A stretch of DNA of 64,000 nt from Mobula hypostoma (taxonomy: Eukaryota), in assembly GCF_963921235.1 (NCBI RefSeq), contig NC_086097.1, forward strand, positions 107,138,001 to 107,202,000, in the 5' to 3' direction. The translations under genes and the position numbers were made by a program. The notes under the pieces are model-generated. The model made no database searches. It saw only the letters and a list, made by a program, of their open reading frames with translations, and had not been told where the DNA came from. This document shows, one piece after another, positions 16,326 to 24,101 of this stretch. Position 1 is the first letter of the stretch. Each line of letters opens with the position of its first letter.

Positions 16326-18151
16326 CAAACACAGTGAACAGTAGCGCTCTGAGGTGTGTGGTAAAGCAAAAGGATCTGGAAATACAGGGACTGGTGTGTG
16401 TTCCCTCGACTTCCTGAAGTCCACAATCCTTTATCTTACTGATGTTGAATGCAAGGTCGTCGTCGTGGCACCACTCAATCAGATGATCTATCTCACTCCT
16501 CTATGCTTCCTTGTCACCATCTGAAATTCTGCCAGCAATAGTTGTGTTATTATCACATTTATAGATGGCATTTGAGCTGTGCCTAGCCACACAGTCATGG
16601 GTGTGGATTCAGTGAAGAAGTGGGCTAAGTACATACTATTGAGGTTGATTGTCAGTGAGGAGGATCTAAGGCAGAGTGGAGAGCCAGTGAGATTGCATCC
16701 ACTGTAGATCTATTGTGGAAATAGGTAAATCGCAGTGGGTCCAACTCCTTGCTTAGGCAGGAGTTGATTCTGATAACCACCCTTTGAAGCACTTCATCAC
16801 AGTAGATGTGTGTTCAATTGGGCGATAGTCATTGAAGATGCTCATTCAGCTCTTATTGGGCACTGGTATGCTTGTTTCCCTTTTGAAACAGTTGGGAAAC
16901 TCCATCTGCAGCAGTGAGAGATTGAAAATATCCTTCAACACTCCTACCAGTTGGTTAGAACATGTTTTCAGTGCCCTACTGGGTATACCATCAAAGCCTG
17001 ATGCCTTGTGAGTGTTCACCCTTTTGAAGGATGTTCCGATATTGACCTCCAAGACAGAGACCACAGGATCACCAGATGCTGCAGGGATTCACATAGGTGT
17101 AGTTTTATTCTTCCTTTCAAAGCCTGCATAAAAACTGGTGAGCTCATCTGGGAGAGAAGTATCACAACTATTCATGAGGTTATGTTTCTCCCTGTAGAAA
17201 TAATGGCCTGCAAACCCTGCCAAAGCTGATGTATATCCAATTCCTTCTGTAACTTCGATCAGAATTGTTTACTTGCTCTTAACATAGCCTTCCATAGGTT
17301 GTACCTGAACTTCCTGTATAGTTTGGATCACGAGCCTTGAATGCCGCAGACCTAGCCCTTGGAAGACCATGAATTTCCTGGTTTCACAGATTTTTAGTTT
17401 GGGAGTGTCCAGTAGGTCTTAATGAAGTTGATGACAACTGTGGTATATTCATTCAGATTCTAAGATGAATCCCTGATTATTGTCCAGTTCACTTTGAGTA
17501 GTCTTGTAAGTTCTCCTCCGCCTCCCTTGACCATACCTTCTTGGTTCTCACCACTGGTGCAGTGGTTTTCAGTCTCTGCCTGTTTCTGGTTGGGCGCCGG
17601 ATGCTCGGAGAGATTCGGCGGGGGCCATGGTCAAGTGGTCGGTGACTTGGGCCAGCTCCCCCACTGGATTTAGTCTGGTGAAGAGGGTGTGAGGACACCC
17701 AGCAGGACTAAAAAAAGACAAGACCTGACAAAGGGCAGATGAGCTCCTTGTGAGCCAATGACCATCTTCAGTGGAAGAGAATAAAGCCTCACCACGTGTT
17801 GTCACAATGGTGGGGGCATTGGGAGCAAGGGTGGACCCAAATGCAAGACACATCTTGTGAGGTTACATAGATTTAGTTTTTTGTTCGATACCAGGAGAGC
17901 AAGGCAGAAGCAGGAATAGCGAACTGGACAAGGACTCAGGACTACGACTAGGCTGGGACCAAGGGTCTGGGCTTGGACTCGGAATCGGATCCCGGAACTA
18001 GAGGAGACTCGAAGAGGCAAGGGTATGGACTCCGAGCCCGAGACTGGGCAAGGACCCAGTACCTGGGTCTTGCCTCGGGCTCGGACCCCAGAACCAGACG
18101 TGGACATGACATGGGCTAGGGAGAGGAGGAACATGGAACCATAGACACATT

Positions 18152-18323
18152 CACAGAACACAGAGTCGGGACCCCTCCTTGGGGACAGGACATAGGACCA
18201 GGACTCACACACAGAACAGAGAGCCGGGACCCCTCCTTGGGTACAGGACATAGGGCCGGGACTCACACACAGAACAGAGAGCTGGGACCCCTCCTTGGGT
18301 ACAGGACATAGGGCCGGGACTCA
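18152..18323. repeat. 58-bp tandem repeat x3
   Basis: cacagaac units start at 18152, 18210, 18268. Confidence 0.95.
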
Positions 18324-18611
18324 TGACGCTCTGCGGGGCAACGGCAAGATGATCAGACTTACCCCACGGAGGCGAGGACAAGACAAGACAAGACATGGCC
18401 CCCCCGCGGGGCAACGGCAAGATGGCAAGACTTACCCCACGGAGGCGAGGACCAGACAAGACCAACACGAAAGCACACCAGACAGTACCTATCTAGCTCC
18501 AGCGATAGAACTAGACTGAGGTGCAGCCGAGAGCTGCAGACGAAGGCTAGAGGCGAGAGGGGCAGAGAAGGGATACAGACTGGGGGGGGATAGGACAGGA
18601 ATCACAGACCG

Positions 18612-18880
18612 CCAGGGCCAGGACTCAACTTGGAACTTGGAAGCCACCTGGGCCAGGACTCGACTCGGAACTTGGAAGCCACCAGGGCCAGGACTCGACT
18701 CGGAACTTGGAAGCCGCCAGGGCCAGGACTCGACTCGGTACTTGAATGACACCAGGGCCAGGATTCGATTCGGTACTTGAATGCCACCAGGACAAGGACT
18801 TGATTTGGTACTTCAATGCCACCGGATCCAGGACTTGACTTGGTACTTGAATGCTGCCGGAGCCAGGACTTGACTTGGAG
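18612..18880. repeat. 35-bp tandem repeat, about 8 units
   Basis: ccagggccaggactcgactcggaacttggaagcca units at 18612, 18647, 18682, 18717, 18752, 18787, 18822, 18857. Confidence 0.95.
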
Positions 18881-19301
18881 CCTTCGGATAGTGGCGAGCT
18901 CTCGACTCGGCCCGGGAACAGTAGACAGCGGTTCTTGATTCCCGCTTTGGCGGGGTAACTTGACAGGGTTGCTCTGGTGAGGAAAGGCGAATTACCGGCA
19001 CTCCCTTTGGGCGGAGACTAGGCTTGCTCCGGCCAGATGACATTGGCATGCCGTACCTTTGGTGACTTTGCAGACGCTTCTGCGCTGAATGGCTGAAAGC
19101 CAGAGACTATAAACTACCGGTTCAGCCGAGCGTTAATTGCCTCTAATCACCAAAGCCGAGGGACACAGGAAGACAGTGAATCAACGGTCCGGATCGTAAC
19201 ATAAACAAGGTAAATTTAAAGGGACCCTGATCCGGACCATGACATGTATCTACAAATCGTATGCTATGCACTTAGTTAGAAGAGACATGATGAACTTGGG
19301 C

Positions 19302-19466
19302 GCTGCACCGTGTGCCTGGACCTGCCCAAGGAAGGGCTGAGCTTGAAGAAACGGCTGCGGCTGGAAGTCGACACGGCCTCGGGCTCGAGTTCGGCGGGGG
19401 CAGCGGCAGGCGGTGCCAAGGCGGCCAGTGAGAACAAACTGGAGGAGAGGCTGTACTCGGTGCTGT
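19302..19466 (+). pseudogene. ZFTRAF1: Captured, circularly permuted fragment of ZFTRAF1 (CYHR1) N-terminal coding region
   Basis: 19304-19465 translates [54 protein letters not shown]; vertebrate ZFTRAF1, recalled from memory, reads KKRLR...[20 protein letters not shown]. Confidence 0.85.
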
Positions 19467-19986
19467 TGCAAGATTGAAGAAGATGGAGGTGCGTAGTCGC
19501 CAACCCCGGATTCGGGACGGCACCCACTGACTGACTAACTGACTGTACACCAGGAGTAGAAGTACAGCCGTGTGATTGGACTTTCCAAAGTGCAAGTGTG
19601 GAATGGTACAGGAAGCAATCTTGATGGTGGAATTACAATGGTCAAGTGTGTTGCGTCCTCTGATTTCACAGATGATATGTTGGTGGTAGTAGGTCAGAGA
19701 CTTCTTCAAGCTGGCCTGGTTGAAATCCCCCACAGTGATAGAAGAGGCATCAGGATGGCTTTTTGTGACTGCTGATCATGGTGGTCAGCTCCTTCAGTGC
19801 CTAATGTCGACCAAGGGTGGGATGTATACCACGACCGGGATGATGACGGAAAACACTTTCAGCAGACAAAGTACATAGCAGTTCCTGATGTCTCTCTACT
19901 ATTGTAATCTTGCTTTAAGACCTTCATTTTTATTTTCCAGAGACTGTACATTGGCCAGCAGGATAGAAGATATTTTAGGTCTAAGG

Positions 19987-20066: not shown

Positions 20067-21374
20067 GTCTAAAGGCTCTGCATTTCAATCTGACTTGCAG
20101 AACAGCATGCTTTTCTCATTTCTTTTTTCTTAAAGAGGAACTGCATTTGTGACTTGAATCTGCTGTCTGGGGTCTGCTGATTTTGAGAATTGATAGATTT
20201 TTTAAAACTACTTAAAGCGATGTTGCTAACTGAAGTACCTATGACTGTGACTGTGGATTTCAGGTGCAGTAGACCTAACTGGAAATATTTGATGATTCCT
20301 CTTGGAGCTGCACACAAAGAGGCACAGTTTATCGGCACCACCTTGGGTGAGATAAGAGCTAAAGGTTGTAGGCTTAGTGTGAAAAGTGAAATATTGAAAG
20401 TGAATCTGAGGGGCAATGTCTTCGTTCAGAGGATGGTGTGAGGGTGGAGTGAGCTGCCAGTGGAAATGGTAGATGTGGTTTTAATTTAAGAGAAGTTTGG
20501 AAATGTATATGGATGAGAAGAATATAGAGCTATATTTTAAGTGCATGTAAATGGGACTTAGCAAAAGACAAGATCAGCATAAACTAGATGGGTGAAAGAG
20601 CCTCTTTCTGTGCTGTATTATTGGCAAAGAATTGAAGGCTGGTTAATGGAATTAGTATAGGTTGGAACTTGATGGCTGACAGACACAGTGGACTGAAGGG
20701 CCTTTTCTGTGCCATTGACATCATGACCACATGACTATCTGAGACACAAGAATGTTGTAAAGGAGGCTGTATTCTGGATGTAATCCCATACTATCCAAGA
20801 GGGTTGTACTTTGATCTCAAACTACAAGGAAAAGACTGCGTTAGAGCTGAAAGAAACTGGAAACATTGAGGTAAGGTAAAGAAATGTGAAATATTAGGAT
20901 TGTTCTTAGGGCCAGAGGAAACTCAGTGGAATTTTAGAGTTGTGATAAAGTTTCTTTATAGACATTCTGAACAAAGCTCTCTTGCCCCCCAACCCCACCA
21001 CACAGTATATCTTCTGTTAGAAAACTGGAACCTGGCTAGTCAGTGCTTGAAATCAAAAATACAAGATAATGAAGAAATACAATCACTAATCTCTGCATTT
21101 GCAAGCACCATTTTGGATATTGACACTCTTTATGTCTGAGAAGAAAGCTTCAAGCTGAGAATACATTTTGTGATGAGCAAGATATTAACAGCCTATAGCA
21201 ATGAGAGGGTTGTGTTATACCTGGTGCCATGACAATAAGGTCTCATATGAGTTTTGCTTCAGAGGACTTGATAGAGCTCTTTAATTGGAAATAGAGATGT
21301 ATAGTTATCATGCAACACACATAAAAGTTGCTGGTGAACGTAGCAGGCCAGGCAGCATCTCTAGGAAGAGGTGC

Positions 21375-21410
21375 AGTCGACGTTTCAGGCCGAGACCCTT
21401 CGTCAGGACT
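21375..21410 (-). ncRNA. Minimal type I hammerhead ribozyme motif, intact core
   Basis: AGTC-CTGACGA-A-GGGT(CTCG)GCCT-GAAAC-GTC-GACT on minus strand. Confidence 0.85.
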
Positions 21411-21705
21411 AACTGAAGGAAGAGTGAGTAAGGGATTTGAAAGTTGGAGGGGGAGGGGGAGATCCAAAATGATAGGAGAAGACAGGAGGGGGAGGGATGG
21501 AGCCAAGAGCCAGACAGGTGATAGGCAAAAGGGATACAAGAGGATCATGGGACAAGAGGTCCGGGAAGAAAGACAAGTGGGGGGGGGAGCCCAAAGGATG
21601 GGCAAGAGGTATATTCAGAGGAACAGAGGGAGAAAAAGGAGAGTGAGAGAAAGAATGTGTGTATAAAAATAAGTAACAGATGGGGTACGAGGGAGAGGTG
21701 GGGCA

Positions 21706-22830
21706 TTAGTGGAAGTTAGAGAAGTCGATGTTCATGCCATCAGGTTGGAGGCTACCCAGACGGAATATAAGGTGTTGTTCCTCCAACCTGAGTGTGGCTT
21801 CATCTTTACAGTAAAGGAGGCCGTGGATAGACATGTCAGAATGGGAATGGGATGTGGAATTAAAATGCGTGGCCACTGGGAGATCCTGCTTTCTCTGGCG
21901 GACAGAGCGTAGATGTTCAGCAAAGCGGTCTCCCAGTCTGCGTCGGGTCTCGCCAATATATAAAAGGCCACATCGGGAGCACCGGACGCAGTATATCACC
22001 TCATCCGACTCACAGGTGAAGTGTTGCCTCACCTGGAAGGACTGTTTGGGGCCCTGAATGGTGGTAAGGGAGGAAGTGTAAGGGCATGTGTAGCACTTGT
22101 TCCGCTTACACGGATAAGTGCCAGGAGGGAGATCAGTGGGGAGGGATGGGGGGGACGAATGGACAAGGGAGTTGCGTAGGGAGCGATCCCTGCGGAATGC
22201 AGAAGGGGGGGAGGGAAAGGTGTGCTTAGTGGTGGGATCCCGTTGGAGGTGGCAGAAGTTACGGAGAATAATATGTTGGACCCGGAGGCTGGTGGGGTGG
22301 TAGGAGGATGGAGTGAGGGGAACTCTATTCCTAGTGGGGTGGCGGGAGGATAGAGTGAGAGCAGATGTACGTGAAATGGGGGAGATGCGTTTAAGAGCAG
22401 AGTTGATAGCGGAGGAAGGGAAGCCCCTTTCTTTAAAAAAGGAAGACATCTCCCTCGTCCTAGAATGAAAAGCCTCATCCTGAGAGCAGATGCGGCGGAG
22501 ACGGAGGAATTGCGAGAAGGGGATGGCGTTTTTGCAAGAGACAGGGTGAGAAGAGGAATAGTCCAGATAGCTGTGAGAGTCAGTAGGCTTATAGTAGACA
22601 TCAGTGGATAAGCTGTCTCCAGAGACAGAGACTGAAAGATCTAGAAAGGGGAGGGAGGTGTCGGAAATGGACCAGGTAAACTTGAGGGCAGGGTGAAAGT
22701 TGGAGGCAAAGTTAATAAAGTCAACGAGCTCTGCATGCGTGCAGGAAGCAGCGCCAATGCAGTCGTCGATGTAGCAAAGGAAAAGTGGGGGACAGATACC
22801 AGAACAGGCACGGAACATAGATTGTTCCAC
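21706..22830 (-). CDS. PLE polyprotein C-terminal part: RT (YIDD), Cys-rich linker, GIY-YIG endonuclease; 5'-truncated
   Basis: 374-aa ORF: YIDD, FLDL, YYKPT, IPFSQFLRLRRICS, PCKRNKCYTC, VIYCVRCSRCGLLYIGET, R-F-EH, LEE, GMN. Confidence 0.9.
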   Translation of the reverse strand: MEQSMFRACSGICPPLFLCYIDDCIGAASCTHAELVDFINFASNFHPALKFTWSISDTSLPFLDLSVSVSGDSLSTDVYYKPTDSHSYLDYSSSHPVSCKNAIPFSQFLRLRRICSQDEAFHSRTREMSSFFKERGFPSSAINSALKRISPISRTSALTLSSRHPTRNRVPLTPSSYHPTSLRVQHIILRNFCHLQRDPTTKHTFPSPPSAFRRDRSLRNSLVHSSPPSLPTDLPPGTYPCKRNKCYTCPYTSSLTTIQGPKQSFQVRQHFTCESDEVIYCVRCSRCGLLYIGETRRRLGDRFAEHLRSVRQRKQDLPVATHFNSTSHSHSDMSIHGLLYCKDEATLRLEEQHLIFRLGSLQPDGMNIDFSNFH

Positions 22831-23732
22831 AAACCCAACAAAAAGGCAGGCATAGCTAGGACCAACGTATTATTCTTCGTAACTTCCGCCACCTCCAACG
22901 GGATCCCACCACTAAGCACATCTTTCCCTCCCCCACTCTCTCTGCATTCCACAGGGATCGCTCCCTACACAACTCCCTTGTCCATTCGACCCCCCATCCC
23001 TCCCCACTGATCTCCCTCCTGGCACTTATCCGTGTAAGCGGAACAAGTGCTACACATGCCCTTACACTTCCTCCCTTACCACCATTCAGGGCCCCAAACA
23101 GTCCTTCCAGGTGAGGCAACACTTCACCTGTGAGTCGGATGAGGTGATATACTGCGTCCGGTGCTCCTGATGTGGCCTTTTATATATTGGCGAGACCCGA
23201 CGCAGACTGGGAGACCGCTTTGCTGAACATCTACGCTCTGTCCGCCAGAGAAAACAAGATCTCCCAGTGGCCACGCATTTTAATTCCACATCCCATTCCC
23301 ATTCTGACATATCTATCCACGGCCTCCTTTACTGTAAAGATGAAGCCACACTCAGGTTGGAGGAACAACACCTTATATTCCGTCTGGGTAGCCTCCAACC
23401 TGATGGCATGAACATCGACTTCTCTAACTTCCACTAATGCCCCACCTCCCCCTCGTACCCCATCTGTTACTTATTTTTATACACATATTCTTTCTCTCAC
23501 TCTCCTTTTTCGCCCTCTGTCCCTCTGAATATACCCCTTGCCCATCCTTTGGGTTCCCCCCCACCCTTGTCTTTCTTCCCGGACCTCCTGTTCCATGATC
23601 CTCTCGTATCCCTTTTGCCTATCACCTGTCCGGCTCTTGGCTCCATCCCTCCCCCTCCTGTCTTCTCCTATCATTTTGGATCTCCCCCTCCCCCTCCAAC
23701 TTTCAAATCCCTTACTCACTCTTCCTTCAGTT

Positions 23733-23768
23733 AGTCCTGACGAAGGGTCTCGGCCTGAAACGTCGACT
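23733..23768 (+). ncRNA. Minimal type I hammerhead ribozyme motif, intact core
   Basis: AGTC-CTGACGA-A-GGGT(CTCG)GCCT-GAAAC-GTC-GACT; predicted cleavage after GUC at 23764. Confidence 0.85.
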
Positions 23769-24101
23769 GCAGCTCTTCCTAGAGATGCTGCCTGGCCTGC
23801 TGCGTTCACCAGCAATTTTTATGTGTGTTGCTTGAATTTCCAGCATCTGCAGAATTCCTGTTGTTAGTATAGTTATCATGATTGCTTCTTGCATTTTCAG
23901 GCCTGTCAGAAATTCTGCTAGCAATGGTAAACTCAGAGAAGTCTGGCAATATGTTTTTTGCTGAACGTTAACCGAACTTTAAGTCTGTCTCGTGCTATAT
24001 ATAAGCAGTCTATCATTAGTATACTTCTAGATAAGGAACATTATTGTGTCTAATGATTAAGCTCTCAGATTTCACAGAACCTTCGCAGAAGGACTCAATT
24101 A

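Follow-up and report, generated by a model that had tools for sequence, protein, structure and literature searches.

What could place a fragment of a host protein-coding gene, its two parts in swapped order, inside a retroposon? The question is posed by positions 19302–19466 of the window – the whole 64,000-nucleotide stretch of the Mobula hypostoma genome that was analysed – which a preliminary description had read as an exactly permuted, in-frame piece of the host gene ZFTRAF1 (CYHR1) carried by a retroposon. Translation of the plus strand from 19304 to 19465 agrees with that reading, and the best protein relatives of the piece are the ZFTRAF1/CYHR1 proteins of a sawfish and two skates (three hits among 698 candidates); a Pfam search with the 54-aa peptide of the window gave no match. 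The window holds one copy of the retroposon, split by a later LTR-like insertion of 1.45 kb, and its parts are as follows.

17585–17799, plus strand: retroposon head, part 1; rearranged hairpin-forming 5′ end and RTE-type LINE 5′ region; 83–93% identity to 19 other copies
17800–19244, no strand given: LTR-like later insertion of 1,445 bp, bounded by TG...CA, with inverted termini of 5 bp and internal tandem repeats; outside the family
19245–19301, plus strand: retroposon head, part 2; LINE 5′ region, in which the LINE frame has its first ATG; 10 nt shorter than the LINE through a deletion
19302–19328, plus strand: block B, from ZFTRAF1 exon 1, where the RING finger starts; length 27 nt (40 nt in the usual unit)
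19329–19466, plus strand: block A, ZFTRAF1 exon 1, 138 nt; directly precedes block B in the gene; 127/138 identical to parent positions 1370–1507
19467–19545, plus strand: RTE-type LINE 3′ end; last ORF codons, stop and (ACTG)n tail; 89% identity to LINE copy L127

Over positions 17626–17797 the head is 86.6% identical to L127, a full-length LINE copy. The 1,445-bp insertion is missing from all 19 of the other copies and is flanked by a 5-bp duplication (17795–17799 and 19245–19249) with one change in each copy; it contains tandem arrays of 35, 58 and 73 bp, and its sole match in approximately 0.5 Mb of fetched loci was a partial one of 101 bp. No clear target-site duplication (TSD) was seen at the window copy. 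Elsewhere in the window, at 21308–23835, an inverted repeat of 846 nt (98% complementary) flanks a 387-aa minus-strand frame with a weak match to GIY-YIG (E 5e-4, under the cut-off); the region is likely to be a Penelope-like element with inverted ends.

A first requirement is the source of the piece. Exons 2–4 of ZFTRAF1 lie on the minus strand of contig C5. When the 3.48-Gb genome was scanned with a degenerate pattern that spans the cut in native order, a single match emerged, likewise on C5, approximately 91 kb upstream of exon 2. Neither PF05605 nor PF21362, used as search profiles, led to the parent gene, and exon 1 is absent from the first 80 kb upstream of exon 2; intron 1 measures ~91 kb (C5:227999891–228091002) and intron 2 ~62 kb. 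The parent exon is single, lies in a CpG island and has an intact frame from its ATG to the splice donor. With parent positions counted on the reverse strand of locus L070, block A corresponds to 1370–1507 (C5:228091183–228091046; E 8e-55), and window 19302–19331 matches 1508–1537 at 30 of 30 nucleotides (E 2e-11), the last three nucleotides of this match being common to block A. In its usual form, as in copy L006, block B matches parent 1508–1547 (C5:228091045–228091006) at 39 of 40 positions. The attribution to the first coding exon of ZFTRAF1 is thus borne out by the parent exon itself.

The permutation is exact. Blocks A and B adjoin in the parent at 1507|1508 and stand in the window in the order B–A, with zero bases lost, gained or doubled at the cut. 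A test set in advance, namely whether 19331–19345 is contiguous with the KKR stretch in the parent gene, was run: the two are contiguous, and the reading survives.

The window copy proved to be one member of a non-autonomous retroposon family of approximately 580 bp, in keeping with the placement of the piece within a retroposon. The 165-bp query gave 927 first-look candidates in the genome, and 40 of the 40 scored were matches; 19 non-self loci align with window 17585–17797 and 19243–19543 as a single element. The proposed count of copies sharing the permuted junction, made with an 18-base pattern spanning the new joint, gave 481 exact matches in the genome (reversed control, 0). This pattern catches 13 of 29 loci picked by the head, and scaling up the 481 matches gives a rough copy number of ~1,070. 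At least part of the gene piece is present in 28 of the 29 loci picked by the head alone, from which it follows that capture happened once, in the family founder. Locus L062, which is without the gene piece, was left out of the family counts, and two duplicate loci were counted once.

Copies are dispersed in the genome. TSDs of 7–18 bp, read by eye, are found at the 5′ end in 17 of 46 copies, and copies start at variable 5′ positions through 5′ truncation, both as expected of target-primed reverse transcription. A tree of 52 copies is star-like, and the majority sequence drawn from 46 copies matches the gene except at 3 of its 178 sites, both of which point to a single founder; head-picked copies differ from the family majority by 6.7%, or by 3.3% outside CpG. 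Two copies on C12, L086 and L087, lie 100 kb apart on opposite strands and do not differ in the 320 nt compared, a private deletion and the 3′ flank among them; they may be a recent inverted segmental duplication or may be an assembly duplicate. Close inverted pairs of copies also occur near L006 and L007 on C80. A sequencing-run search with the stretch found part of it in 20 of 24 rows (seven coded organisms, skin metagenomes), but the query included LINE and gene sequence and these rows are therefore not evidence of the permuted joint in other species; no RNA run was listed by this search.

The unit had been given as 165 bp, that is 55 codons, with the frame kept. This is true of the window copy, whereas the usual unit is 178 bp and not a multiple of three: among the 100 listed of the 481 joint matches, 93 have 178 bp, six have 165 bp and one has 172 bp. 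The 13 further bases of the 178-bp form continue the parent to 1547 (12 of 13 identical), and 178 bp is for this reason the original form. A standing of the 165-bp form as ancestor, or as a separate microhomology circle, is ruled out, since 13 parent bases cannot arise from the short form; as its sequence reads, it is a later 13-bp deletion between 4-nt direct repeats. Besides this deletion, eight short copies have no common non-CpG change that is absent from other copies, and the short form may be one subfamily or may reflect recurrent slippage.

The partner LINE is present in the same genome. Full-length copies, reached by walking upstream, are ~3.5 kb long and have a single long frame that passes through a reverse transcriptase (RT) domain (E 1e-28) and on to the final codons and (ACTG)n tail also found in the element; LINE copies whose upstream frame holds the RT domain end in this same tail. 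The element head is 86–89% identical to the 5′ region of five full-length LINE copies, while the tail is 90–96% identical to the 3′ 73 nt of the LINE, plus (ACTG)n, in seven LINE copies. In other left context the tail pattern has 210 matches in the genome, and 96 of the 100 listed are LINE 3′ ends. No separate ORF1 was seen in the partner LINE, and its putative endonuclease pieces, recognised by their motifs, gave no Pfam match. The single long frame, the size and the tail presumably point to the RTE clade, a placement that rests on architecture and not on a tree. Partner LINE copies are mostly 91–95% alike, to be set against the 6.7% by which element copies differ from their majority, and the two are of like age.

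Relative to this LINE the head lacks 7 nt at one place and 10 nt at another, its first 100 nt are rearranged, and the 5′ end of the element folds into a long hairpin (z −2.8), which is missing from the seven LINE copies sampled. The first 100 nt (L015 1190–1330 and other heads) repeat the LINE 5′ region in inverted orientation, with part of it deleted. One LINE copy (L124 1300–1381) is truncated at its 5′ end and bears there 82 nt from its own 5′ region turned round, in a twin-priming-like arrangement; L062 has, at ~1880–2160 on the minus strand, a (GAC)n-tailed 3′ end that we take to represent a second, different RTE-type family. A tRNA-like SINE head, prompted by an A-box-like word, was rejected, with 0 Rfam matches at E ≤ 1 in four loci and the head mapping to the LINE, as was a head from 7SL or 5S RNA (on the same search of the same four loci). 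A retrozyme-type self-cleaving ribozyme gave no Rfam match in the element, and a rough HDV-like descriptor, a weak test, found none in three LINE 5′ regions.

Between head and tail, the 178 bp of ZFTRAF1 exon 1 occupy the place of ~2.9 kb of missing LINE interior, and the element thus has no reverse transcriptase or endonuclease of its own. The left, inner and right joints are all blunt, with no base shared and none added. Among the 100 listed of the 210 tail matches there was no empty form (head joined to tail) and no pre-deletion founder; a further search of 12 loci yielded 11 variant copies and one copy interrupted by another element, with no empty or earlier form, and a single further match was an ordinary LINE. 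Since no such intermediate was found, the order of the steps was not seen. The anatomy of the element and its spread by the LINE are, in our judgement, close to certain, and far surer than any of the routes to the permutation considered below.

A central issue is how the permutation arose. An exact permutation of one round implies either that a closed circle was opened once or that two abutting fragments were joined in swapped order. The explanation that we place first, and for which confidence and doubt are about evenly balanced, is that the interior – the exactly permuted 178-bp piece of ZFTRAF1 – was captured once from an opened circle of DNA type. First, 178 nt of the CpG-island first exon would have come free and had their two ends joined without microhomology; the product, most probably a germ-line DNA microcircle of mononucleosome size, would then have been opened once, at a hairpin tip. 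Either the LINE reverse transcriptase, jumping from end to end, or end-joining repair would have set the opened piece between the 5′ and 3′ ends of the LINE, with loss of ~2.9 kb. Because it kept the LINE 5′ region and the 3′ recognition tail, the chimera would have been mobilised in trans by the LINE protein and spread in a single burst to ~1,000 places; the window copy would afterwards have lost 13 bp and gained the LTR-like insertion. That a circle was opened and integrated had been suggested in the preliminary description: the circle is retained as the leading idea, but an integration of the circle at the window locus is not supported, capture having taken place once in the founder.

The size of the original unit, 178 bp, is that of a mononucleosome, as the suggestion of a nucleosome-like circle anticipated, and its composition is 71% GC with a CpG observed/expected ratio of 0.7–1.0. 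Germ-line eccDNA, in the account given in the relevant part of PMC10581685, includes a 175–185 bp class that is GC-rich and enriched at 5′ UTRs, and about two thirds of these circles lack perfect microhomology; in the 178-bp reading there is likewise none at the circle joint. The cut divides a 6-nt hairpin loop exactly in half, and the stem beneath it is 6 bp of perfect pairing. Only two perfect stems of at least 6 bp occur in the circle, which give 3 centre bonds and 7 loop bonds among 178, and in eight of eight single-stranded DNA folds the cut is in the top 1–6% of unpaired bonds. The hairpin-centred cut is nonetheless a hint only, because the test was made after the fold was seen. In RNA folds of the unit the cut reaches only the top 6–26%, and in 150-nt RNA windows over the exon it is paired. 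Bluntness discriminates little, given that a triple of joints without microhomology is expected in 16% of random joins. The fuller version of the DNA-circle account – a germ-line microDNA of mononucleosome size from a CpG-island exon, which a LINE took up whole after a nick at a hairpin tip and which became the body of a thousand-copy element – is plausible from the sequence, although we would sooner doubt than accept it in all its parts.

The piece is sense to both the mRNA and the LINE, lies entirely within an exon and sits in an RT-dependent element, and on these grounds an RNA template fits at least as well as a DNA circle. RT jumping, which the preliminary description had set beside the circle, is kept there. 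The route would involve no splicing: a 178-nt mRNA fragment would have been cut once in a hairpin loop and the abutting pieces kept together, to be joined by jumps of the LINE RT (LINE 3′ end, A, B, LINE 5′ part) or by an RNA ligase that joined or circularised them beforehand. We consider this route a tentative one, somewhat improbable but a serious contender. Sense orientation, a fully exonic piece and three clean joints are what it would produce, and the sources, as far as their consulted parts extend, supply precedents for its steps: non-LTR RTs can jump from one template to a separate one where pairing is slight or absent (PMC8857657), RtcB ligation precedes the formation of U6/L1 chimeras (PMC6789731), RT can cross open structured RNAs whose ends are close (Dong et al., PMC4897178), and 15 of 17 human mRNA/L1 chimeras are sense (bioRxiv 10.1101/2025.02.02.635956). 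Yet at least three joins are required, with pieces of two RNAs in one order, and the mononucleosome size is left without a reason. The unit, moreover, folds only modestly better than shuffles (z −1.85), and four of the five break sites tested (the cut, the A start and both LINE breaks) are predicted to be paired in local RNA folds, only the B end being open.

An origin from a spliced circRNA is unlikely. Here the exon-1 donor would have been back-spliced to a cryptic acceptor within the exon, giving a 180-nt circle that later lost 2 nt beside the junction in the founder. The circle ends had been singled out for a check of microhomology and splice sites, and the second of these lends the idea some substance: block B ends 4 nt before the exon-1 donor, block A begins with AG, and a 2-nt deletion turns the predicted joint into the observed one. 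A length of 180 nt would also make the whole chimera one frame from LINE ATG to LINE stop, and the great length of intron 1 counts in the same direction. Against this, the two extra bases occur in 0 copies genome-wide and in 0 of the 100 listed joint matches, the acceptor is poor (G at −3; nine pyrimidines and one T in 20 nt), and an extra event is needed exactly at the joint; we regard back-splicing as quite improbable. Still less probable is a head-to-tail duplication (A–B–A–B) from which exactly one unit was captured or left by deletion, which would derive the B–A order from ordinary DNA rearrangement but is opposed by a parent exon that is single and intact, by the coincidence (of order 1 in 100) of taking exactly 178 of 356 bases, and by copies among which none was seen with longer flanks.

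It might finally be supposed that the piece was retained because it is useful. In the usual form a 93-codon frame opens at the first LINE ATG, continues through block A, which is read in native frame, and closes at the LINE stop; such a frame may aid ribosome access or escape from decay, or may give a peptide or small RNAs that act on ZFTRAF1. At least 90 codons are kept in 16 of 41 copies with an intact start, and at each of the two outer joints LINE and gene are both in codon phase 1 (a chance of ~1 in 9), but the frame was noticed after the fact, stops are rare in GC-rich DNA, the 165-bp form of the window stops after 24 codons, two of the piece's three fixed changes are non-synonymous, and copies decay mainly at CpG, like neutral repeats, and we hold usefulness to be the least credible suggestion of all. 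The gene piece is most likely a passenger, and the element is one old accident with no sign of function.

If the piece was captured from a tiny circle, it would be a rare fossil of such a circle entering the germ line, and it bears on whether the ~180-bp circles that abound in germ cells ever find their way back into chromosomes and are passed on. Single circle integrations are hard to read after decay; here the joints of the founder are preserved in ~1,000 copies, and because parent gene and partner LINE are in the same genome, every joint is known to the base. The element also illustrates how new non-autonomous LINEs with a cargo of host coding sequence can arise. Inserts that are exactly permuted and flanked by the two ends of a LINE are a searchable signature, and their size, strand and source would separate DNA circles from RNA circles. 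Should the microDNA-circle reading be true, microDNA would be heritable raw material for transposon birth, and LINE interiors could be mined as traps for ancient small circles.

Among the papers listed by the literature searches there was none on the element, and neither CYHR1 nor ZFTRAF1 occurs in any of 15 listed in one of them; a consensus may nevertheless be deposited in Repbase or Dfam. The closest architecture is that of the bipartite non-autonomous RTE LINEs Bov-A, RTESINE1/2, WALLSI3 and MAR4_MD (Kojima 2018, PMC5786205). With these, as that paper describes them in the portion consulted, our element shares the 5′ region and 3′ end of an RTE-type LINE, the deleted interior, the microsatellite tail and mobility in trans. 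Whereas they consist solely of LINE 5′ and 3′ parts, here a permuted 178-bp piece of a host coding exon fills the deletion; the same portion of the paper names no exon-filled case, and the word ‘shark’ is absent from its main text. With 178 bp of host exon between the LINE parts, the element is a variant of the bipartite RTE LINE and not a plain member.

Non-colinear sense copies of genes fixed in a genome, some of them amplified beside retroelements, are known as circRNA-derived pseudogenes (Dong et al. 2016, PMC4897178, in the part consulted), and to this extent the piece is like them. Those pseudogenes join a donor to an upstream acceptor across exons, whereas here both ends lie within one exon, off splice sites, and the piece makes exactly one round; membership in that class was rejected, for the joint is not at splice sites, block B falls short of the donor and no copy has the predicted joint length. 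LINE-1/mRNA and U6/LINE-1 chimeras offer another parallel, with first-exon sequence joined in sense to a LINE and long first introns (bioRxiv 10.1101/2025.02.02.635956; PMC6789731). As the available text of these sources has it, the piece in such chimeras is at the L1 5′ end, colinear and mostly in single copies, and the strings ‘permut’ and ‘circular’ occur 0 times in the former; ours, by contrast, is internal, permuted and within a spreading family. The likeness to germ-line microDNA, or mononucleosomal eccDNA, extends to a length of ~180 bp, richness in GC, origin in a 5′ gene region and the frequent lack of perfect microhomology (Hu et al. 2023, PMC10581685, within the part consulted). In that system the circles are free, in sperm and their precursors; what the genome of M. 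hypostoma presents is solely an integrated and amplified footprint.
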